A stretch of 64,000 bases of DNA from an uncultured Anaerolineae bacterium (lineage in GTDB: Bacteria > Chloroflexota > Anaerolineae > Aggregatilineales > UBA3940). Below are positions 5,317 through 49,104 of this stretch, one piece after another. Every line of letters starts with the position of its first letter. Position 1 is the first letter of the stretch. Location: assembly GCA_964390105.1 (NCBI GenBank), contig CAYMGV010000001.1, positions 66,002 through 130,001 of the forward strand, given 5' to 3'. Below the pieces are notes generated by a model that saw nothing but the letters and a program-made list of their open reading frames with translations, searched no databases and was not told the origin of the DNA. The translations under genes and the position numbers were made by a program.

Positions 5317-5334
5317 CCCCGGTGAATCAGCTTA

Positions 5335-5590
5335 CAGGCTGCGAACGGGAGGAGTACGCGGGCCGAGTTCGGCCAGAGAATGAGGGTCGCAGGCTGCAAG
5401 CCCTCAACGAGACACCCCGCGGAAGGTCGCCCGTAAGCCAACCCATTGAATCAGGCCAGTAGATGGGTTCGGGTGCGCCCGTTACAGTGCCAAATAAGTG
5501 TACGTGGACCACAGCGGTCGGCGTGAACTAAGGTGGTACCGCGAAACCCCGTTTCGTCCTTAGCCAGGATGAACCGGGATTTTTGTTTTT
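5335..5590 (+). promoter_or_regulatory. T-box riboswitch leader (tRNA-Val sensing) with intrinsic terminator, upstream of valS
   Basis: The conserved T-box sequence AAGGTGGTACCGCG is at 5530-5543. It is immediately followed by a terminator helix (5548-5559 pairs with 5567-5578, with 1 mismatch and 1 G-U) and ATTTTTGTTTTT. Upstream elements are a GCGA..GGAGGAGTAC Stem I-like start (5341-5358) and an AGAGA element (5374-5378). The candidate specifier is 'GAAG-GUC-G', with the Val codon GUC at 5426-5428. The UGGU bulge matches an A73-CCA tRNA end. Confidence 0.75.
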
Positions 5591-5765: not shown

Positions 5766-8411
5766 ATGACAAGAGAAATGCCTAAAACCTATGATTTCAA
5801 CGCCACTGAAGCCCGCCTGTACGAGTGGTGGGAATCGAGGGGCTACTTTAAGCCGGAGATTGCGGGGCCAGATGCCGAGCCGTTTGTGATCAGTATGCCG
5901 CCCCCTAACGTGACCGGCGCGCTGCACCAGGGGCACGCGCTGTTCGTGGCGTTGGAAGACCTCATGATCCGCCATGCCCGCATGAAAGGCCACGCGGCGC
6001 TGTGGGTGCCCGGCACCGATCATGCCGGTATCGCGACGCAGTTGCTCGTTGAGCGTATGCTGATCAACGAGGGCACCAGCCGCGAGGAAGTGGGCCGCGA
6101 GGAATTCCTGGAGCGTACATGGGAGTGGAAGCACGAAAAAGGCGGGCGCATCACGGAGCAGCTCCGCAGGCTTGGCGCAAGCTGCGACTGGGAGCGTGAA
6201 CGGTTCACACTCGATGAGGGCCTAAGCCGTGCCGTACGTGAGGCTTTTGTGCGCTGGTACGAAGCGGGCCTGATTTACCGTGACACCTACATGATCAACT
6301 GGTCGCCCAATTTGCAGACGGCGGTCAGTGACCTTGAAGTCGAGCGCGTGGAGCAGAACGGCAAACTGTACTACTTCAAGTACCGCATCGCAGGGGGGGA
6401 CGACTACCTGCCCGTGGCGACCACGCGACCCGAGACGATCCTCGGCGACACTGCCGTGGCCGTCAACCCCAATGACCTGCGCTACCAGGCGTTTATCGGT
6501 AAGATGGCGCTGGTGCCCGTACTCGACCGTGAAATCCCCGTGATCGCGGATGAGTATGTCGATATGGAATTCGGTACAGGTGCGCTCAAGATCACCCCGG
6601 CTCATGATCCCAACGACTACCAGATCGGGCTGAAGCACAACCTCGATATGATTACGATCATGAATAAGGACGCCACCATTAACGACCTGGGCGGGCCGTA
6701 CGCAGGCATGGATCGCTTTGCAGCTCGCAAGAAGCTATGGGCCGATATGGATGGCGCGGGACTGGTGATCAAGGCCGAGGACTACACCCACATCGTGCCG
6801 ATTGCCCAGCGCGGTGGCGAGTTGATCGAGCCGATGATCAGCACACAGTGGTTCGCGAGGATGAAGGGGCCAGCCGATATGGCGCTGGAGGCTGTTCACG
6901 ACGGCACCATGACCATCGTGCCCGACCACTTCAGCAAGGTCTGGGATCACTGGCTGGAAGACATCCATGACTGGTGTATCAGCCGTCAGTTGTGGTGGGG
7001 CCACCGCATCCCAGCCTGGCACTGTGCCGAGTGTGGCGAGGTCACCGTGTCACGCGAGGACCCGACCAAGTGCGCACACTGCGCCTCAACCCGCATTGAG
7101 CAGGACCCGGACGTGCTGGACACATGGTTTAGTTCGGGGTTGTGGCCGTTCAGCACGCTGGGCTGGCCCGATGAAACGCCCGACCTGAAACGCTACTTCC
7201 CGACGCATGTAATGGAAACGGGTTATGATATCCTGTTTTTTTGGGTGGCACGCATGGCGATGATGTCGCTCTCGCTGATGAAGGAAGCGCCGTTCGAGAC
7301 GATCTATCTGCACGGTCTTGTGAGGGATGAGCACGGCAAGAAGATGAGCAAGACCACCGGCAACGTAATCGACCCCATCGAAGTTATGAATGAGATGGGC
7401 ACCGACGCGCTGCGCTTCACCCTGCTGACGGGGTCCGCGCCGGGCAGTGACATGAACCTGTCCATAGACCGCATCGCATCGAACCGCAACTTTGCCAACA
7501 AGCTGTGGAATGCGGCACGCTTCCTCGTCGCAGCGCTGGATGAGGAGAAGCCGGGGGAGGCCCCCACGCTGGAGAGTCTGACCCTGCCGGACCGCTGGAT
7601 ACTCAGTGGCCTGCACAAGCTCATCGATAATGTAAACCGCCTGATGGAGAACCACCAGTATGGAGAGGCGGGTCGCCAAACCTACGACTTCTTCTGGAGC
7701 GAGTACGCGGACTGGTACATCGAGATCAGCAAGGTGGCGCTTTACGGGGAGGACAAGGACGCACGGGCACGCACGCTCAATATCCTGACTTACGTGCTCG
7801 ATCAAATCCTGCGACTGCTGCACCCTTATGTGCCGTATGTCACCGAGGAAATCTGGCAGCACATCCCGCATGAGGGTGAGGCCCTGATCATTGCGTCATG
7901 GCCGCAGTACGATGAGGCCTACATCGACAAGGACGCCGACCATGTCATGGGCCTGCTGATGGACCTGATTCGTGGCATCCGTAACGTACGCGCCGAGTAT
8001 GACGTGCAGCCGTCGCGCAAGGTCACGGCGCTGATCGCGGCAGGTGAGATGACCGAGACGTTCACCGCCAACCGCGCACAGTTCGAACGGCTGGCGAACA
8101 TTGACCTTGAAACACTGGAGATCGCGGAGACAGTCGAAGCGCCGGGGCAGGCCGCGGCAGTCGCCATCAGCAGCGGTATCAGCGCCTACCTGCCGCTGGC
8201 CGGGCTGATTGATCTCGAAGCAGAGAAGGTTCGCATCGAGAAGGAACTGGCTGAGGTGAGCGGGCGCATCGAGAAGACACAGATGCAGCTTGCCCACAAG
8301 GGGTTCGTTGCCAATGCCCCCGGGGCCATCGTACAGAGGGAGCGCGACAAGCTCGAAGACCTGCTGGCACAGCAATCCGCGCTTCGTGAGCGGCTCGAAG
8401 GACTGGGCTAA
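5766..8411 (+). CDS. valS: Valine--tRNA ligase
   Basis: 881-aa ORF with the class I HIGH-type motif (PPPNVTGALHQGHA), KMSKT (7342 region 'KMSKTTGNV'), a CP1 editing domain and a C-terminal coiled coil. Confidence 0.97.
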   Translation: MTREMPKTYDFNATEARLYEWWESRGYFKPEIAGPDAEPFVISMPPPNVTGALHQGHALFVALEDLMIRHARMKGHAALWVPGTDHAGIATQLLVERMLINEGTSREEVGREEFLERTWEWKHEKGGRITEQLRRLGASCDWERERFTLDEGLSRAVREAFVRWYEAGLIYRDTYMINWSPNLQTAVSDLEVERVEQNGKLYYFKYRIAGGDDYLPVATTRPETILGDTAVAVNPNDLRYQAFIGKMALVPVLDREIPVIADEYVDMEFGTGALKITPAHDPNDYQIGLKHNLDMITIMNKDATINDLGGPYAGMDRFAARKKLWADMDGAGLVIKAEDYTHIVPIAQRGGELIEPMISTQWFARMKGPADMALEAVHDGTMTIVPDHFSKVWDHWLEDIHDWCISRQLWWGHRIPAWHCAECGEVTVSREDPTKCAHCASTRIEQDPDVLDTWFSSGLWPFSTLGWPDETPDLKRYFPTHVMETGYDILFFWVARMAMMSLSLMKEAPFETIYLHGLVRDEHGKKMSKTTGNVIDPIEVMNEMGTDALRFTLLTGSAPGSDMNLSIDRIASNRNFANKLWNAARFLVAALDEEKPGEAPTLESLTLPDRWILSGLHKLIDNVNRLMENHQYGEAGRQTYDFFWSEYADWYIEISKVALYGEDKDARARTLNILTYVLDQILRLLHPYVPYVTEEIWQHIPHEGEALIIASWPQYDEAYIDKDADHVMGLLMDLIRGIRNVRAEYDVQPSRKVTALIAAGEMTETFTANRAQFERLANIDLETLEIAETVEAPGQAAAVAISSGISAYLPLAGLIDLEAEKVRIEKELAEVSGRIEKTQMQLAHKGFVANAPGAIVQRERDKLEDLLAQQSALRERLEGLG

Positions 8412-8438
8412 CCCCGCGAAATCCACCAATCAAAAAAT

Positions 8439-8465
8439 GGCGGGATTCCTGTGTTGAATCCCGCC
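8439..8465 (+). terminator. Perfect 10-bp GC-rich hairpin downstream of valS (possible terminator, no U-tract)
   Basis: GGCGGGATTC (8439-8448), a 7-nt loop, then GAATCCCGCC (8456-8465). It is preceded by A6 but not followed by a T-run. Confidence 0.35.
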
Positions 8466-8533
8466 GTAGCAGTCACAAGCATGCCGCACTGAACCCGCGA
8501 CGCGTTGTATGTAACATAGCCTCCACCCATCCC

Positions 8534-9283
8534 GTGGTTTATAATGGGCGCATTCGTTCAGAACTGGACAGGTTTTTCATGATGTTATCATCTGACAGTG
8601 ACACCATTCCTACCAACGATCACTCTCCCATCGACCCGCCGACTGACATCACCGTCACTGACCCTGAACCCGCGTGGAAACCTGGAATTGCCGATTCCGC
8701 CGGGTCAGCCGGGGACGGTTTCTTCAGCGATGCAACTGACAACGACCTGAAGGAAGCATGGGGTGTCATCCGGGAAATCCTCGAAACCGTTGCACTCGCC
8801 GTCGCGATCTGGCTGGTAGTCAACTTTGCCACGGCTCGTTACATCGTCATCGGAAACAGCATGCAGCCTAACCTTGAAACCGGTGAGTTTTTGCTGGTTA
8901 GCCGCCTGTCGTATCGCCTCGGTGAACCGGAGCGCGGCGATATTATCATCTTTGATTACCCCGGTAATCTCAGCGATGATTACGTCAAGCGCGTGATCGG
9001 CCTGCCGGGTGATGCGGTCAGCATCGACGGCAACAGGGTGATCGTCAACGGCGTGCAGTTGGATGAGCCATACATCGATGGGCCAACCAGCGGGGCAGGG
9101 CTGTGGCAGGTGCCCGAGGGGCACTACTTCGTACTGGGCGACAATCGAGGCGGCTCCAGCGATTCACGATCATGGGGGATGCTGGATGAAGAACACATCA
9201 TCGGGAAGGCGGTATTCTCGTACTGGCCGGTCAACCGGCTGGGCCTGATTCCGCATTATGATTATGACAACCTGGAAGAATAG
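8534..9283 (+). CDS. lepB: Signal peptidase I
   Basis: Catalytic Ser box 'GNSMQPNL', 'YVKRVIGLPGD' and 'GDNRGGSSDSRSWG'. The track start is a GTG at 8534. An ATG at 8579 (MMLSSDSD...) is an alternative start. Confidence 0.9.
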   Translation: MVYNGRIRSELDRFFMMLSSDSDTIPTNDHSPIDPPTDITVTDPEPAWKPGIADSAGSAGDGFFSDATDNDLKEAWGVIREILETVALAVAIWLVVNFATARYIVIGNSMQPNLETGEFLLVSRLSYRLGEPERGDIIIFDYPGNLSDDYVKRVIGLPGDAVSIDGNRVIVNGVQLDEPYIDGPTSGAGLWQVPEGHYFVLGDNRGGSSDSRSWGMLDEEHIIGKAVFSYWPVNRLGLIPHYDYDNLEE

Positions 9284-9294
9284 CAGAGGTCAAC

Positions 9295-9840
9295 ATGAAT
9301 GCATGGCATGATGTCGCAACCGGACCAGATTCCCCAAATCGCGTGTACGGGATCATTGAAATCCCTAAAGGCAGCCGTAATAAGTACGAGTACGACAAAG
9401 ACACCGGCCTGATGCGGCTCGACCGCGTGCTGTATTCCTCGCTGCATTACCCCGGTGACTACGGCCTGATCCCGCAGACCTACTACGACGACGGCGACCC
9501 GCTTGACATCCTCATAATGGGCAACGTCCCGACCTTTCCCGGCTGCCTGGTTGAAGCGATCCCCATCGGGTTGTTCCGCATGCTGGACCGTGGCGAACCA
9601 GACGATAAAATCCTCGCCATTCCCAGCGGTGACCCCTTCTTCAACGAGTACCGGGACCTTTCCGATATTCCATCACACTTTCTCGCTGAGGTGGCACACT
9701 TCTTCTCAGTCTATAAAGACCTTGAAGGCGCGCGGGTCGAACCGCTGGGCTGGGAGGGGGCTGACTTCGCGCGGGATCGAATCGTCCATGCCATGAAGTT
9801 CTATCAGCGCAAATTCGGGGCTAAGAAGGATAAGAAGTGA
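9295..9840 (+). CDS. ppa: Inorganic pyrophosphatase (family I)
   Basis: 181-aa ORF with 'IEIPKGSRNKYEYDKDTG', 'YPGDYGLIPQT', 'DGDPLD' and 'DDKILA', matching soluble PPase. Confidence 0.93.
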   Translation: MNAWHDVATGPDSPNRVYGIIEIPKGSRNKYEYDKDTGLMRLDRVLYSSLHYPGDYGLIPQTYYDDGDPLDILIMGNVPTFPGCLVEAIPIGLFRMLDRGEPDDKILAIPSGDPFFNEYRDLSDIPSHFLAEVAHFFSVYKDLEGARVEPLGWEGADFARDRIVHAMKFYQRKFGAKKDKK

Positions 9841-42414: not shown

Positions 42415-44109
42415 TTACTCAAACCCATCGAAGCCCTCATCTCCGTAGAGCTTCTTACTGGCTTTTCCTGGCTTCCCGCCCGTTGACTTGCCTGTAATAG
42501 GTGCCCCCATCGCAGTATAGAACGCAGCATCATACGAGCGCGTTTTGATGACAACCGGCATCGGGACGGCATGACCAAGCACAATCGCCTGCTGACGTGT
42601 ATCGAGGCGGGCCAACACTTCACGCAGACCGGCAGCACCGCTAACCCCCATCAGCACCGCAGCGATGTCCTTATCATTGTCGAGCAGTGCCGTGACGCGC
42701 GTCCCGATCTGGGACATGACCTCCTCATCGATGGCACTGGGGCGCTGGTCCACGACCAGCAGCGTTACCTTAAACTTACGCAGTTCCCGCGCAATTGTGC
42801 CGAAGATGGTCTGATGCGCGATCTTCGGCTCCAGGAACTTATGAGCCTCCTCGATGGTGATCATGAGCTGCGGGGGTTCCTGCCCACCTTCACCCAGTGA
42901 CTTCTCGATACGGTCCACGTAGCGATTGCGAATGCGGCGCGTCAGGTAGTTGGCGACGAGGATGTAGGCATCGAGCGTGTTCCCGTACCGGCCAAACTCA
43001 AGGATCACGCTGATGCCGTTCTCGATATAGTTGAGAATTTCCTGCACAGCAGAATCGCCGGGTGAGTGTGGTACGAGGAAATCCCAGCGCCTGAAGCGCT
43101 CCAGCCGGCGGGTTAGCGCCGTTAGCGAAGCCCCGTTGATGGTGGTGTTCTCGGTCAGGTCATCGATGGTCGCACCGTCTGCCGTTAATAGCTGCTGAAT
43201 CCAGCCCTTGCCCCACATGCGGTACAGGTTCCACGCGGCATCGAGCATCGTATCGGAGATGTCCATGGTGTGTGCCACAGCGGCGAGGTCATCGGGTGAA
43301 ATCTCATCATAGCCAAGACGGACCACAAAATCAGGCCGTACGTTACGATTACGCGAGGATTCATCGTCCAGCGTGAAGATCGAGACCCTATCGGGAAACA
43401 ACTGCTTGAGGCCCTTATCCTTGCGCCCGGACTCGTTGATAACCTCCCATCCATAATCATTGTGCATATCAAACACCAGGCTGACGGCAGTCCCGCGCGA
43501 TATCGTACCGGCCAGCAGCACACGGGTCAGGTAGCTCTTGCCTGTACCGCTCTTGCCAAACACGCCCACTGAGCGTTCCGTCAGGCGTTTGAGGTCTACA
43601 TTGATCTGCGTATCCTGCAGTTCGAGCGGGCTGCCGATGTTGAAATGAGTCTCGTCCTCATGTCCGAATACGTCGTTGATATCCTGCTCGGTGGCCGTCC
43701 ACACCTCCTGGAAGTGCGCGGGGATGGTGCGCACGGGCAGGATTGTGCCGTCTTCCTGGATGATCAGCATCGGCACGATATGGACCGTACCGAAGGCTGT
43801 TGTGCCAGAATACACCTCGGCAATATATGGGTTGAGCTTCACATCGGGCGGTTTCTGCGTCAGCGCGAGATTGGTGCTGTTCAACCCAATATCGGTGATC
43901 ATGCAGAAGTAGCGCTGGCTGCGGCCATGCACCACCACGTACCGGCCCACGGCCAGTTCCTCGATGTCAGTGTCGCCGTCGAGTTTGACCTCAATCCCAC
44001 GCCCAAGCGAGCCGCCAACCACCACACCGAGGCGGGGGGAGCGCGGCCCGAAGTGCCTATCCAGTTCGCTGAGTCCGTTGTTCACCATCGCTTGGTTACT
44101 CACTCTCAT
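42415..44109 (-). CDS. HerA-like hexameric ATPase/translocase (DUF87, FtsK/HerA superfamily)
   Basis: 564 aa. N-terminal HAS-barrel-like segment 'RLGVVVGGSLGRGIEVKLD...VGRYVVVHG', Walker A 'GVFGKSGTGKSYL', Walker B 'QLMITIEEAHKFL' and 'LLVVDQRPSAID'. Confidence 0.82.
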   Translation of the reverse strand: MRVSNQAMVNNGLSELDRHFGPRSPRLGVVVGGSLGRGIEVKLDGDTDIEELAVGRYVVVHGRSQRYFCMITDIGLNSTNLALTQKPPDVKLNPYIAEVYSGTTAFGTVHIVPMLIIQEDGTILPVRTIPAHFQEVWTATEQDINDVFGHEDETHFNIGSPLELQDTQINVDLKRLTERSVGVFGKSGTGKSYLTRVLLAGTISRGTAVSLVFDMHNDYGWEVINESGRKDKGLKQLFPDRVSIFTLDDESSRNRNVRPDFVVRLGYDEISPDDLAAVAHTMDISDTMLDAAWNLYRMWGKGWIQQLLTADGATIDDLTENTTINGASLTALTRRLERFRRWDFLVPHSPGDSAVQEILNYIENGISVILEFGRYGNTLDAYILVANYLTRRIRNRYVDRIEKSLGEGGQEPPQLMITIEEAHKFLEPKIAHQTIFGTIARELRKFKVTLLVVDQRPSAIDEEVMSQIGTRVTALLDNDKDIAAVLMGVSGAAGLREVLARLDTRQQAIVLGHAVPMPVVIKTRSYDAAFYTAMGAPITGKSTGGKPGKASKKLYGDEGFDGFE

Positions 44110-44112
44110 TTA

Positions 44113-44727
44113 CTATGCGTTGTTGGGGTATATCAGGCGCAGCATGTAATCCAGCCGATCCATATCATTACTGAGCAGACGAGCAGCCTCACGGCCCGCA
44201 CTCACCAGGAAGGAATACTGGCGCTCCTCCGGCATCATCAGCGCCGTATTCAGCAGTGCCGATGCAAGTAACTGTTCACTCGGCACGCCAGGCGCACTGA
44301 GTACCATACGGAAGAAATCGAAACGGTGGCCGAGTACCTGGATGTGTTCACCTGGTGTACATACGTAGACCGGGTCAAGGCTGAGCGGCGGGCGTGGGGG
44401 CAGTGCGTGACGCACGCCCCCATCCGGCAGGCGGTAGCCAATGGCCAGCACACTCATCTCGACCGGTGCCAGCCGGTGATGATGCTGATCACGCACCATC
44501 TCATCGCTGATCGCCTCGGCCAGCACCAACTGGCGCACCAGCGGGTCATCATCAATATGGATGTCATACAGCAGGCCGTAGATCACGTCGCGAGTCTCAG
44601 CACGCGGCACGGCCTTCACTACGCTGCCAAACGCGGGCGCATCCAACTGCTGGACGCGCGCCCCGGCTGAAAAGCCGCTGGTGCTGGCGCGCAGCACACT
44701 CCCGATCGGTTCTTGCCAATCCATCAT
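44113..44727 (-). CDS. Hypothetical 204-aa protein, middle gene of the NurA/HerA operon
   Basis: The ORF is 3 nt upstream of the HerA-like gene and 18 nt downstream of the NurA-like gene. I recognised no family. The N-terminal 'PIGSVLRASTSGFSAGARVQQLDAPAFGSVVKAV' loosely resembles a HAS-barrel strand pattern. No TM segment or signal peptide. Confidence 0.6.
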   Translation of the reverse strand: MMDWQEPIGSVLRASTSGFSAGARVQQLDAPAFGSVVKAVPRAETRDVIYGLLYDIHIDDDPLVRQLVLAEAISDEMVRDQHHHRLAPVEMSVLAIGYRLPDGGVRHALPPRPPLSLDPVYVCTPGEHIQVLGHRFDFFRMVLSAPGVPSEQLLASALLNTALMMPEERQYSFLVSAGREAARLLSNDMDRLDYMLRLIYPNNA

Positions 44728-44745
44728 AGGGCTGCACTCACTTTG

Positions 44746-45990
44746 TTAATTGGTTTTTGCGGATGATGATTGGCCTGACTGATGACGGGTCTTGAGGCCA
44801 CGGGCGGCGTCCTTGCTGCCTGCCTTGGCACTCTGCCCCGGCAAAATGCCATGCCGTGTCATAGAAACACTGATCATCATATCGAGTTGGCGAGCTTCCT
44901 CGCGCTTAACGACCGCCAGTTCATCGGCGCGGGCCAGCACATAGGGATACCGGACCACCGTCTGTTGACACTGCTGCCACAACAGGCCCTGCACTTCGGC
45001 CACCAACTCGCGATTACGCATGGCCCACATCGGCATCTCAACACGGGCCAACACGGGGAAATCACCTTCGTGTGCGGCCACGTTCATATAAAAGAAGGCG
45101 ATCTCAAGCTCCTCACCGCCCTCCTGCCTGAACTCCTTGTTCTGCGGAGACATCTGCACGAAGATCGCGCTGCGCTGGCCCGGTTCGAGAAAGCGGCCAA
45201 ACACCTGGATATCGCGCACCCCTTCGATGCGGCCATTGGTAGCAAGGCTCCTGCGGGAAACGCTTTCCTCGTCAATATCCATCAAATGCAGCAAACTGAT
45301 CACAAAGCGCGAACGCGGGCGGTCGGTATAGCCAACCAATGCGGCCTGCACATCCATCAGACGCACCATGGCACTGAAGTACACCCGCCGAAGCTGTTCT
45401 CGGTCGGGCACGTCGGCACTCATCACGAACAGCAGTGGGCCGTCCAGCAGCGAGATCAGCGGGCGGGCCGCCCCGCGCTGTTTCCATGAGTTCTCAGTCA
45501 GGGCTTCCATCTCAGCCACGGTACGCCGCGCACTGATCACGGAGGATTTCACCATGCCGCGCCCCTCGGTTTGCAAGTAGCCTTCTTCGAAGAACAGGTA
45601 CGGCTGAGTGACGATCTCCGGTGGCGTTCCGCTGCCGTGGCTCAGTATGATAGTGCCCGTGTTCAGCAGATAATACAGCGATGAGCCGTGCGTATCAGGC
45701 AGTATCTGCGAGCCATCTGTGGCAATAATGGTCGCCGATTCCGGCAGCGGAGCCGGGTGATAGGCCGCCATGATCGGTTCATCCAGTGGCCGGGCACCAC
45801 GATAGCCCGCGTCCTTATCGATGGCATCCTGCACGCGGCGGTCAATTTCGGGGAGCCACGCCTCATCAGCATAGGCTTCCATGATCTTCAGGGCAAGGTC
45901 GGTCTTGTAGAACTCCTCGTCCTCTTTTGTCGCAATATATTCACCCATGCGGTCAACCTGCTCGGTGAGCTTGGCAAATTCCAGTGTCAT
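44746..45990 (-). CDS. NurA-like nuclease
   Basis: 414 aa. 'TIIATDGSQI' and 'LISLLDGPLLFV' match the two Asp-containing NurA motifs (xDGS / DG[SP]L). The size and operon partner (HerA-like) are consistent. Confidence 0.7.
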   Translation of the reverse strand: MTLEFAKLTEQVDRMGEYIATKEDEEFYKTDLALKIMEAYADEAWLPEIDRRVQDAIDKDAGYRGARPLDEPIMAAYHPAPLPESATIIATDGSQILPDTHGSSLYYLLNTGTIILSHGSGTPPEIVTQPYLFFEEGYLQTEGRGMVKSSVISARRTVAEMEALTENSWKQRGAARPLISLLDGPLLFVMSADVPDREQLRRVYFSAMVRLMDVQAALVGYTDRPRSRFVISLLHLMDIDEESVSRRSLATNGRIEGVRDIQVFGRFLEPGQRSAIFVQMSPQNKEFRQEGGEELEIAFFYMNVAAHEGDFPVLARVEMPMWAMRNRELVAEVQGLLWQQCQQTVVRYPYVLARADELAVVKREEARQLDMMISVSMTRHGILPGQSAKAGSKDAARGLKTRHQSGQSSSAKTN

Positions 45991-46145
45991 GGCATTCTCC
46001 AGCCGCTCAAGGCAATTATCCCCGGCATATTTCGTTCAGATGGCATAGTAGCACTTTCGTTCTAAACACGCAAATGAATCCGCCAAGCGTGATCAATGGT
46101 ACAATTCGAGCAGCAGTTCAACCCCTTGCCAGCCGGAGTAACATC

Positions 46146-47087
46146 ATGCGTCGGTATGTCTATACGGCCAGCATCTTCACCATCTATGTTTACATCATCC
46201 AGTTTGGGTTCATCCTGTTCAATCTATTCACAACCTCCAGTTCCGTGATGCCCACCCTACAGGAGTTCTTCCACTTCTACCGGCCTGATGCCATCTATTC
46301 CCACATCAACGTCGCGGCCCTGTTTATTGCAGCGGCGGCTTTGCTGGCATTCGACGAGAAGCGCTATACACTAACCGGTGTATTTGGCGTGGCGCTGCTG
46401 CTCTCGACCTCGCGTACCTCAATGATCGCGCTGATCCTGGGGGCCGCCGTCTACTTTTGGCTAAAAGGTGGTGTCAAGCTCATGCGCTTTGCGCCGGGAG
46501 TGGCCGTCATCGGTGCAGCGGGTGTGCTGGTCACCTTCCTGCGTGGTGGCTCCTCACGGATGATCTACTGGTCAGCGGGTATTGATCTGCTAAGACCAAC
46601 CCCATGGCTCGGCGTACCACGCGGCGCGATTCGCGAACTGATGTCGCCACTATCGCAGATTCACCTGCACAACCTTTACGTCCAAATGCTGGTGGAAAAC
46701 GGAATCGTGGGGCTGGTACTGCTGATTGCGGCGATCATCGTGGCATTTATCCTGATTTGGCGATATGCACCCGACCGCGCGCTGGCCGCCTCGATGTTCA
46801 CGCTGTTTGTCGGCGCGGGGCTGTTCGATTATCATTTCTTCTCATACCCGGCTGATATGATCTACATTGGCGCATTGATCGCCGCCTGGCAGAGCCAACC
46901 CGCCCGGTTTTACCGCGCCGACCCCTGGCTGCATTTGTTGGCTGCTGTCATCTCGTTCTTCGCATTTATCCCCGTCGAACGCATCGCGGCGTTTGGAATC
47001 TTCTGGCCTGTGCTGCAAACTGTGATTGTGCCGTTCGGCATCAAAATACGAGACCAGATACAAAACCTCGAATCGGCGGCGATATAA
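46146..47087 (+). CDS. O-antigen ligase/polymerase-like (Wzy_C-type) polytopic membrane protein
   Basis: At least 8 predicted TM helices and an 'LLLSTSRTSMIALILGAAVY' loop motif. The ATG at 46146 (MRRYVYTASIF...) is preferred. The track start at 45984 overlaps the NurA start. Confidence 0.65.
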   Translation: MRRYVYTASIFTIYVYIIQFGFILFNLFTTSSSVMPTLQEFFHFYRPDAIYSHINVAALFIAAAALLAFDEKRYTLTGVFGVALLLSTSRTSMIALILGAAVYFWLKGGVKLMRFAPGVAVIGAAGVLVTFLRGGSSRMIYWSAGIDLLRPTPWLGVPRGAIRELMSPLSQIHLHNLYVQMLVENGIVGLVLLIAAIIVAFILIWRYAPDRALAASMFTLFVGAGLFDYHFFSYPADMIYIGALIAAWQSQPARFYRADPWLHLLAAVISFFAFIPVERIAAFGIFWPVLQTVIVPFGIKIRDQIQNLESAAI

Positions 47088-47279
47088 GGGCACTCTCCGA
47101 GAGCCGTTCTCTCACAGAATTGCCCTGAATTTCGCGGTGACTGATGTGCTTCCATGGCCTAGCATTGTTTGCACCCATATTAGTGCCGATTATTTATACA
47201 AATCGGAACCTTTACTTTTTCAGGCATGCCGTGTACCATTAACTCAGAAGACGCCTTGGTTAAAAGGAGCAGAAGGGCC

Positions 47280-47870
47280 ATGCCAAAGGGAAGTGGAAAA
47301 GCCATCCCGAAAGTGGAAATGAACAAAGAGATCGCACTGAGACTTTTAGAAATCCTCAAAACACGCTTCAAAGAGAATATGAGGCGTCACGAAGGAATCG
47401 ACTGGGCTGATGTACAGGCCCGCATGGAGGCCAACCTCGGCAAACTGGCTTCGCTCAATGCGATGGAGCACACTGGTGGTGAACCCGACGTGGTTGACCA
47501 CGATCCATCCACAGGAGAATATTTGTTCTGCGATTGTTCCGCCCAAACCCCAGAGGGGCGCCGCAGCATCTGCTATGATGACCCCGCCGAACAGGAGCGC
47601 ATCAGGAAAGGCGTTAACCCCGGCGGCAATGCCGTTGCACTTGCCGAGGCTATGGGCATCGAACTCCTAAATGAGGAACAGTACCGCTATCTCCAAACGG
47701 TTGGCGAGTTTGATACCACCACGTCGAGCTGGATCAAAACACCCGAGGAGATCAGGAAACTCGGTGGGGGGCTTTTCGGGGATCGCCGGTACGGTACCGT
47801 GTTCATCTATCACAATGGCGCACAGTCATTCTACTCCGCGCGGGGTTTCCGGGGTGTACTGCGAGTCTGA
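47280..47870 (+). CDS. DUF4256-like protein
   Basis: 'LLEILKTRFKENMRRHEGIDWADVQARMEAN...LNAMEHTGGEPDVV...WIKTPEEIRKLGGGLFGDRRYG' matches my recollection of DUF4256. The start is ambiguous (47226, 47280 or 47319). Confidence 0.6.
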   Translation: MPKGSGKAIPKVEMNKEIALRLLEILKTRFKENMRRHEGIDWADVQARMEANLGKLASLNAMEHTGGEPDVVDHDPSTGEYLFCDCSAQTPEGRRSICYDDPAEQERIRKGVNPGGNAVALAEAMGIELLNEEQYRYLQTVGEFDTTTSSWIKTPEEIRKLGGGLFGDRRYGTVFIYHNGAQSFYSARGFRGVLRV

Positions 47871-47878
47871 AAGCACTT

Positions 47879-48961
47879 ATGAGCCAAGACACGAACGACA
47901 ACACCGATATCACCATCCAGGATCAGATCACGCTTTCCGACGTGGATGCCATGCTGCGTGCCGGGCAGATCGCAAACGACTATGCACAAAGCACCGTCTT
48001 CAGTGATTACCACATCCGGCGTTCAGATAATACCCTGCGCCGCCAGTTAGGGGACCTGCGCCTGTTTGCGTTATTTCTTAATAATGCAGGTTTGCGCCTC
48101 AACGGGGACACCCTGCAAATCAGCCCCGAGGCATGGCGCGGCGTGACCTGGGGAATCATTGAGGGATTCAAGCGTTGGATGTTGACCGAAGGCTACGCGG
48201 TGGGCAGCATCAATGTGAGGCTGTCCACCATCAAGACCTATGCGCGCCTGGCGGTGAAGGCTGGCACGATCACAGCCGAAGAAGGACTTCGTATCAAAGG
48301 GGTCAACGGCTTTAGCCACCAGGAGAAGCGTAAGGTCGATCAAAAACGTACCGTGACGCGTGTCGGGGAAAAGAAGGCGCAGCCCGTCCGCATTACGACC
48401 GAGGTCTACCGGAAGCTGATCGCAGGACAGCCCAAAACCCCACAGGGCCGACGTGATACACTGATGTTGTGCCTCCTGCTTGAACACGGGCTGCGCGTCG
48501 GTGAAGTGGCCGGTTTGGCGGTCGATGATATTGACCTCAACCGTGGCGTACTGCACTTCTTCCGAGAGAAGGTTGGTAAACAGCAAGTGCACACCTTGAC
48601 GGCCAACACGTACCGGGCCGTGTCCTTCTACCTCGAAACGGAAGGTGCGCCACAGGGTGGCTATCTGCTGCGGGCCAGCTATCGCGGCGGCCACCTCGCG
48701 CCATCCTCCGGCATGACCAAACGTGCTATCAACAAGCGTATCCGGCTGCTGGGCCGGCGCATGGGCATTGACGGTATGAGCCCCCATGACTGTCGCCACT
48801 TCTGGGCTACCCGTGCCGCACGTTCCGGCACCGATACATTTGCATTACAGGAGGCCGGTGGCTGGAACAGCCTCGCGATGCCGCGCCGCTACGTCGAGGA
48901 ATCGTCAGTGGCAAACCAGGGTGTGATGGGCTTTAATACTGTTGATGACAAAAACGAGTGA
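47879..48961 (+). CDS. Tyrosine-type site-specific recombinase/integrase
   Basis: 360 aa. Catalytic-domain motifs 'LLLEHGLRVGEVAGLAVDDID' (Arg I), 'SPHDCRHFWATRAA' (H-x-x-R) and 'GGWNSLAMPRRYVE' (catalytic Tyr). It ends 58 nt before tRNA-Leu. Confidence 0.85.
   Translation: MSQDTNDNTDITIQDQITLSDVDAMLRAGQIANDYAQSTVFSDYHIRRSDNTLRRQLGDLRLFALFLNNAGLRLNGDTLQISPEAWRGVTWGIIEGFKRWMLTEGYAVGSINVRLSTIKTYARLAVKAGTITAEEGLRIKGVNGFSHQEKRKVDQKRTVTRVGEKKAQPVRITTEVYRKLIAGQPKTPQGRRDTLMLCLLLEHGLRVGEVAGLAVDDIDLNRGVLHFFREKVGKQQVHTLTANTYRAVSFYLETEGAPQGGYLLRASYRGGHLAPSSGMTKRAINKRIRLLGRRMGIDGMSPHDCRHFWATRAARSGTDTFALQEAGGWNSLAMPRRYVEESSVANQGVMGFNTVDDKNE

Positions 48962-49019: not shown

Positions 49020-49104
<85 letters not shown>

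Follow-up and report, generated by a model that had tools for sequence, protein, structure and literature searches.

A stand-alone HAS-barrel protein encoded between NurA and HerA in Anaerolineae and its probable place in a DNA-processing machine

Gene organization of the locus

The window, a 64,000-nucleotide stretch of a contig from an uncultured Anaerolineae bacterium, harbors three co-oriented open reading frames (ORFs) on its minus strand that encode a NurA-family nuclease, a 204-residue stand-alone HAS-barrel protein referred to here as X, and a HerA-type hexameric ATPase. The first gene of the operon, encoding the 414-residue nuclease, spans 44746–45990 (−) and matches the Pfam NurA model PF09376 over residues 87–361 with an E-value of 9.8e-25. 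Gene X (44113–44727, −) is an ATG-to-TAG ORF with its stop codon at 44113–44115 and occupies the middle position of the operon. The third gene (42415–44088, −) encodes a HerA of 557 residues when read from the start codon that is consistent with its orthologs, or of 564 residues when read from 44109. The longest HerA ORF (42415–44109) matches the Pfam models for DUF87 (E 9.4e-25) and, at residues 27–77, for the HAS-barrel (E 2.4e-4), and is matched by the sequences of solved HerA proteins with E-values down to 1.2e-17. It also matches the HerA models of NCBIfam and PADLOC, but far under the equivalog cut-offs; the PADLOC matches (E 2e-32) are to generic HerA models only. The PF09376 and DUF87 matches on the same strand identify the adjacent, co-oriented NurA and HerA genes by which a NurA-HerA end-resection system is recognized.

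The junctions between the three genes are short. NurA and X are separated by 18 nt (44728–44745, −), in which a Shine-Dalgarno-like AGTGAG (44737–44742), read from the sequence, lies 9 nt 5′ of the X ATG. The X-HerA junction (44089–44112, −) contains a TAA codon straight after the X stop, the alternative ATG at 44109, and a second AGTGAG at 44099–44104. It was originally predicted that the X stop lies only 3 nt from the HerA start; in the context TAG TAA ATG this holds only for the longest HerA ORF. When the HerA starts of 19 close orthologs (L002–L026) were tabulated, the start codon was located 19–21 residues ahead of the GVVxGG motif in 17 of the 19, and the matching position in the window is the ATG at 44088, 24 nt past the X stop. 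The hexamer AGTGAG precedes this ATG by 10 nt, and its two occurrences (44099–44104 and 44737–44742, −) may represent a weak ribosome-binding motif shared in this organism. With gaps of 18 nt and of 24 nt or less, the three genes are tightly packed whichever HerA start is right, and nothing resembling a terminator or promoter was found between them.

Gene X shares the third-position GC bias of its neighbors, as had been noted originally, with a GC3 of 0.69 compared with 0.70 for NurA and 0.72 for HerA. In an alignment with 14 orthologs, the fraction of differing sites is 0.53–0.65 at codon position 3 but only 0.13–0.31 at position 2. This asymmetry reflects purifying selection on the X frame and agrees with the earlier statement that the gene is almost certainly translated.

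Two-gene nurA-herA systems are known from other bacteria, among them the Deinococcus radiodurans pair DR_0836/DR_0837. In Thermus, the nurA stop codon overlaps the start of hepA (herA) (PMC5448004), and the Deinococcus genes are treated as a two-gene operon (PMC9960219). The locus in the window resembles both in that the same two enzymes are co-transcribed, with the nuclease first and the ATPase second. Unlike these two-gene tandems, it has a third gene interposed, and NurA directly abuts the HerA subfamily of the window in 0 of 52 loci. Searches of the literature on a third NurA-HerA gene, or on a free-standing HAS-barrel protein in such systems, returned nothing relevant.

A predicted HerA-type barrel without a motor domain

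The AlphaFold2 model of X, generated from a 29-sequence alignment, has a pLDDT of 87.9 and a pTM of 0.83 and consists of six N-terminal strands followed by five helices. The N-terminal domain (residues 8–123; 44359–44706, −) is predicted to be a six-stranded HAS-type β-barrel on the basis of DSSP analysis of the model, Foldseek searches, and the Pfam matches of related proteins. The strands are assigned to residues 9–15, 18–23, 36–39, 49–58, 89–99, and 119–122, with a helical insert of ∼28 residues after strand 4. Two motifs are present in the barrel: DDDP (residues 59–62), a motif of the Chloroflexota clade whose DDD (residues 59–61) is invariant there, and LPPxPP (residues 109–114), which is found family-wide. 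The C-terminal domain (residues 124–204; 44116–44358, −) is a family-specific helical domain with a pLDDT of about 95 in the full model and 81.8 when modeled alone. Its helices comprise residues ∼125–132, 138–143, 150–164, 167–184, and 189–199 and harbor conserved AGRE/LxxLL motifs. No PDB structure matched this domain significantly (best E 0.58), and as modeled it is without a known structural analog.

In a Foldseek search of the X model against the PDB, the best 50 matches were all HerA chains (E 3e-6 to 1e-3, probability 1.00), with 124–170 aligned columns and about 140 in the best ones. The matched chains include those of the Thermococcus kodakarensis HerA-NurA complex (9x1l), Sulfolobus HerA (4d2i), SIR2-HerA, DUF4297-HerA (8zit, the HerA of this system), and TdpAB. 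The predicted structure of X thus carries a six-stranded fold that can be superimposed on the N-terminal HAS-barrel of HerA (PF09378; 4d2i, 9x1l, 8zit). At the level of sequence, X matches PF09378 over residues 8–58 with an E-value of 0.13 and 12.8 bits, which misses the gathering threshold (cut-off 25.2 bits); among 78 diverse members of the family, 14 match PF09378 at E ≤ 0.01 (best 2.7e-9), and membership of X in the HAS-barrel group follows by transitive homology through these relatives.

The original prediction had proposed a stand-alone HAS-barrel, with structure prediction and a Foldseek search as checks, and the confident six-stranded model, its HerA matches, and the PF09378 matches of relatives all point to such a fold. 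The basis on which the proposal was made, a resemblance by eye between X and the N-terminus of its cognate HerA, did not hold up. The local alignment of the two scores 28, compared with 29 ± 5 for shuffled sequences. An hhalign comparison of the X family with an alignment of HerA N-termini gave an E-value of 0.12, pairing X residues 29–60 with HerA residues 50–78 in the register first proposed; hhalign against a single HerA sequence gave nothing useful, and the X-family profile matched none of the PDB sequences at E ≤ 10. A shuffle-level score and an E-value of 0.12 leave the eye-level argument without weight on its own, and direct sequence homology of X to the N-terminus of the cognate HerA was discarded as evidence. 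The assignment of the N-terminal domain to a HAS-barrel-type fold is right as far as the predicted structure and the relatives of X indicate, and does not depend on likeness to the cognate HerA.

HerA and the wider FtsK-HerA group are defined by a RecA-like P-loop ATPase domain. No P-loop, DUF87, or AAA match was detected in X with Pfam, and the C-terminal half of the protein is all-helical in the model; X is therefore not a HerA. It differs from HerA in being a separate polypeptide of ∼200 residues that lacks the RecA-like ATPase domain, the Walker motifs, and the helix-bundle insert, in having a C-terminal helical domain with no PDB analog, and in showing chance-level similarity to the barrel of the cognate HerA. 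No catalytic family was matched in Pfam, NCBIfam, PADLOC, or PHROGs, and the maximum of a Kyte-Doolittle plot with a 19-residue window is 1.14, in keeping with the original observation that X has no catalytic motif and no transmembrane segment. Initiator methionine aside, the only columns conserved across the family are glycine, proline, and leucine, including those of the LPPxPP loop; together with the absence of a P-loop, this argues for a structural rather than a catalytic protein.

A split HerA, with barrel and motor encoded by separate genes, was considered and rejected. The HerA downstream of X in the window keeps its own HAS-barrel (E 2.4e-4), and HAS-barrel matches are also present in the HerA proteins of L087, L089, and L094, so X is not half of a split HerA.

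The predicted fold of X corresponds to the N-terminal part of HerA minus the ATPase domain, as would be expected if the gene were the decaying remnant of a duplicated herA, reduced to its N-terminal fragment. A related possibility is that X is a hitch-hiker without a role in the NurA-HerA system, to which the few distant homologs in unrelated genomic contexts would also lend themselves. Several properties of the family contradict these explanations, which are very improbable: its length is constant at about 200 residues across 698 sequence clusters, the strong codon-position asymmetry denotes purifying selection, the C-terminal domain is conserved, confidently folded, and not derived from HerA, and the linkage to NurA and HerA is kept across phyla down to 30% identity. 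A decaying herA fragment is essentially excluded.

The X family and its linkage to NurA and HerA

X had been described as an orphan, yet 2239 homologs at E ≤ 1e-3, mostly proteins of ∼200 residues, were detected among the 5.8 billion proteins searched, and a profile search of cluster representatives detected 698 clusters at 50% identity, of which 393 reach E ≤ 1e-10. The family is widespread and uncharacterized. Few homologs in the main search have a source name, and these derive from metagenome-assembled genomes of Anaerolineae/Chloroflexota; one of the homologs (P0010) is named 'HAS-barrel domain-containing protein' by NCBI. A genome scan, for which the diverse X alignment (A2) was too variable to serve as seed, located 80 X loci, all in Chloroflexota (Anaerolineae, Aggregatilineales, Thermoflexus, and Ardenticatenia). 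A further branch of the family, reached with a protein 28% identical to X (P0265), bears source names from Rhodothermales, Bacteroidota, and Candidatus Latescibacteria, and many members of this distant branch have precomputed PF09378 matches. Neither Pfam nor NCBIfam contains a dedicated model for the family, and X itself matched no model in NCBIfam, PADLOC, or PHROGs. The plasmids searched contained no X homolog and no close HerA, and the BFVD viral structure library contained no match to X under 1e-3. Two apparent NurA-X fusions (P0214 and P0224) are likely frameshifted gene calls; the sequence between their two parts is garbled, and for this reason they were left out as Rosetta-stone evidence.

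Linkage was evaluated in two samples, one anchored on X in genomes and an independent one anchored on HerA in metagenomes (52 loci; 49–74% HerA identity). Among the 72 X-anchored genome loci that could be evaluated for NurA, the gene ends at most 300 nt upstream of X in 61, lies further upstream in 7, and is absent in 4. HerA starts at most 300 nt downstream of X in 33 of 71 evaluable cases, is 0.3–4 kb off in 10, and is absent in 28; where at least 5.5 kb of downstream sequence is present, 22 of 49 loci have no nearby HerA. In the HerA-anchored sample, X is adjacent at 37 loci, further upstream at 8, and absent at 7, which places X upstream of HerA in 45 of 52, and NurA never abuts this HerA subfamily without X in between (0/52). 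The co-occurrence with NurA and HerA that the original prediction had put forward as a check is strong from both anchors (61/72 and 45/52).

The trio extends beyond Chloroflexota. At about 30% X identity, the three genes overlap or nearly abut in loci from other phyla (L087, L089, L090, and L094). Relative to the window, the NurA, X, and HerA proteins are 64, 69, and 77% identical in L002, 46, 53, and 65% in L049, and 30, 30, and 47% in L087, and the three proteins thus diverge in parallel. Where the trio is broken, the breaks fall on either side of X. The gene between X and HerA in L040 encodes a membrane protein on the opposite strand, and the genes between NurA and X include an amylase in L049 and heterogeneous ORFs in L147–L172. 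A conserved fourth component was considered and rejected, given that the insertions consist of unrelated genes and that the methyltransferase, HATPase, and TIR neighbors are lineage-specific.

The linkage of X to NurA is no weaker than its linkage to HerA, so that a role directed at NurA is as plausible as a HerA cap. The main rival to a subunit role is that X is chiefly a NurA partner, a mimic of the HerA barrel that occupies the HerA-docking surface of the NurA dimer as a decoy or chaperone. Bound in this way, the nuclease would remain inactive or stable until handover to HerA, or could act without the motor. NurA is known to bind HAS barrels (PMC9960219), and in the Chloroflexota genomes its adjacency to X (61/72) is tighter than that of X to HerA (33/71). 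In the 22 of 49 loci noted above, NurA-X is present with no HerA within about 6 kb, and in L001, L084, and L088 the NurA-X pair is followed by unrelated genes. X and NurA also resemble each other in evolutionary rate, and HerA evolves more slowly than either. The HerA-anchored sample speaks against the proposal, with some loci in which X overlaps HerA while NurA lies 1.5–2.7 kb away; such X-HerA pairs apart from NurA indicate that X is not exclusively NurA-linked. A NurA-directed decoy or chaperone is judged rather unlikely as the main function of X.

A few distant members of the family occur elsewhere, after an AAA_15/DUF4276 pair (L091), by an integrase fragment (L092), or after a peptidase M23 gene (L093). 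In L091 (3755–6421), the distant homolog P0262 (about 27% identity) is encoded behind the genes for an AAA_15/AAA_21 ATPase and for a DUF4276 protein, and neither NurA nor HerA is present in the retrieved ∼5.8 kb upstream and 6 kb downstream. This context hints that a stand-alone barrel may pair with other ATPase systems as well.

Proposed role of X and surroundings of the trio

The current mechanistic models of NurA-HerA, derived from archaeal and Deinococcus proteins, consist of two components, with the nuclease dimer placed directly on the crown formed by the HerA barrels. An NurA2-HerA6 complex with ATP-dependent 5′-3′ resection is known only for proteins from these sources. In Deinococcus and in the archaeal complexes alike, the HerA hexamer receives the NurA dimer on its HAS-barrel face; the Deinococcus contact involves the acidic HerA residues D78, E80, and D81 (PMC9960219). 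The HAS-barrel domain of HerA thus serves as the crown of the ring and as the dock for NurA or other effectors.

A motor-less barrel gene between NurA and HerA, retained with a HerA subfamily over several phyla, points to a subunit that is absent from these models, and X is probably an undescribed third subunit of the NurA-HerA DNA-processing machine. More specifically, the evidence leans slightly towards X being a non-catalytic structural subunit at the barrel face of HerA or its interface with NurA. The two predicted domains, a HerA-type HAS β-barrel followed by a family-specific helical bundle, would be non-enzymatic, and X would act on the crown of the HerA hexamer, the face that receives the NurA dimer. 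In one version, X would assemble into an additional ring of barrels, fitted with a helical collar, that connects the NurA dimer to the HerA hexamer; in another, it would offer NurA a second HerA-like docking surface. Either could make X an adaptor or a regulator. From fold and gene context we infer physical binding, and with it a ring, a stoichiometry, and an effect on nuclease or ATPase activity that such binding may entail.

The subunit reading draws on the HerA-like fold, the missing motor, the linkage to both NurA and HerA in two samples, the parallel divergence, and the packing of the operon. Set against it are the Pfam E-value of 0.13, the lack of similarity to the cognate HerA, the 22 of 49 loci without a nearby HerA, and the odd contexts of L091–L093. 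The cognate HerA also keeps its own HAS-barrel, which means that an additional barrel is not obviously needed. A stronger form of the subunit reading is tentative and on present evidence doubtful: X would be an obligate third subunit, a HAS-barrel ring with a novel helical collar that sits between the NurA dimer and the HerA hexamer or gates NurA, such that the nuclease never docks directly on the motor in a large bacterial branch. If true, this would constitute an undescribed way to couple or license a nuclease on a ring translocase.

Were X to bridge or gate the NurA-HerA contact, the licensing of the nuclease in these bacteria would be explained, and the HAS-barrel would be newly used as a free-standing docking module. 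Such a role would also bear on HerA-based anti-phage systems, because these recruit effectors on the same face of HerA. A three-gene variant of NurA-HerA extends a known machine in a way that may surprise specialists. Overall, the original prediction stands in part: its gene context and barrel fold are supported, its orphan label and its sequence argument are not, and the capping or adapting of the HerA ring that it suggested would be one possible role of X.

HerA hexamers that recruit an effector on the barrel side are established defense modules, and three of them (SIR2-HerA, DUF4297-HerA, and TdpAB) are among the best structural matches of X. Their partners are the SIR2, DUF4297, and TdpB effectors, none of which is encoded at the locus in the window, and unlike the X locus they have no stand-alone barrel subunit. 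It is conceivable that the NurA-X-HerA trio serves in anti-phage or anti-mobile-DNA defense rather than in housekeeping end resection, with X as adaptor or sensor, and this would be compatible with X being either a subunit or a NurA partner. The match of the window HerA to the PADLOC HerA models (E 2e-32) fits such a function, as do the differing methyltransferase/restriction cassettes beside the trio in other phyla (L087, L089, and L090), the TIR-domain gene and PIN toxin near the L088 locus, and the variable genes inserted between NurA and X at some loci. In contrast, X and NurA match none of the PADLOC families, including those of the known HerA defense systems (SIR2-HerA, DUF4297-HerA, MADS, and Dnd), and neither a plasmid copy nor a viral structural match was found in the collections searched. 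In Anaerolineae, the trio is embedded in conserved synteny with housekeeping genes (window compared with L002), it diverges in step with its partners as a core module passed on by vertical descent would, and the defense-like neighbors are lineage-specific. A defense function for the trio is regarded as unlikely.

In a non-Chloroflexota lineage, N6/N4 methyltransferase cassettes are located directly downstream of HerA (L087, 9347–11361; L089/L090, 9354–10891). L087 is otherwise syntenic with L089/L090, and the methyltransferases match only at E 1e-25; the methyltransferase is paired with a 384-residue protein in one genome, whereas the others have a BglII-type endonuclease in its place. This variation suggests a restriction-modification insertion hotspot beside the trio. 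In L088, NurA-X is followed by a TIR_2/NosD β-helix protein in the place of HerA, with a PIN-domain toxin near (7680–8972 and 9109–9435), which may represent another effector pairing or simply the neighborhood of a defense island.

About 2 kb from the NurA start in the window, a tyrosine recombinase of the phage-integrase family (47879–48961, +), assigned by synteny with L002, is followed after 58 nt by tRNA-Leu(CAG) (49020–49104, +). The synteny with L002 covers the integrase as well as the FemAB-like and GT4 genes on its flanks, and the region thus resembles a conserved arrangement of the chromosome more than a recent insertion; the window ORFs at 45984–47087 and 47226–47870, between the integrase and NurA, are absent from L002. 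Elsewhere in the window, a T-box leader (5332–5564, +; Rfam RF00230, 104 bits, E 6e-22) is situated about 200 nt upstream of an 881-residue ORF (5766–8411) that presumably encodes an aminoacyl-tRNA synthetase under T-box control.
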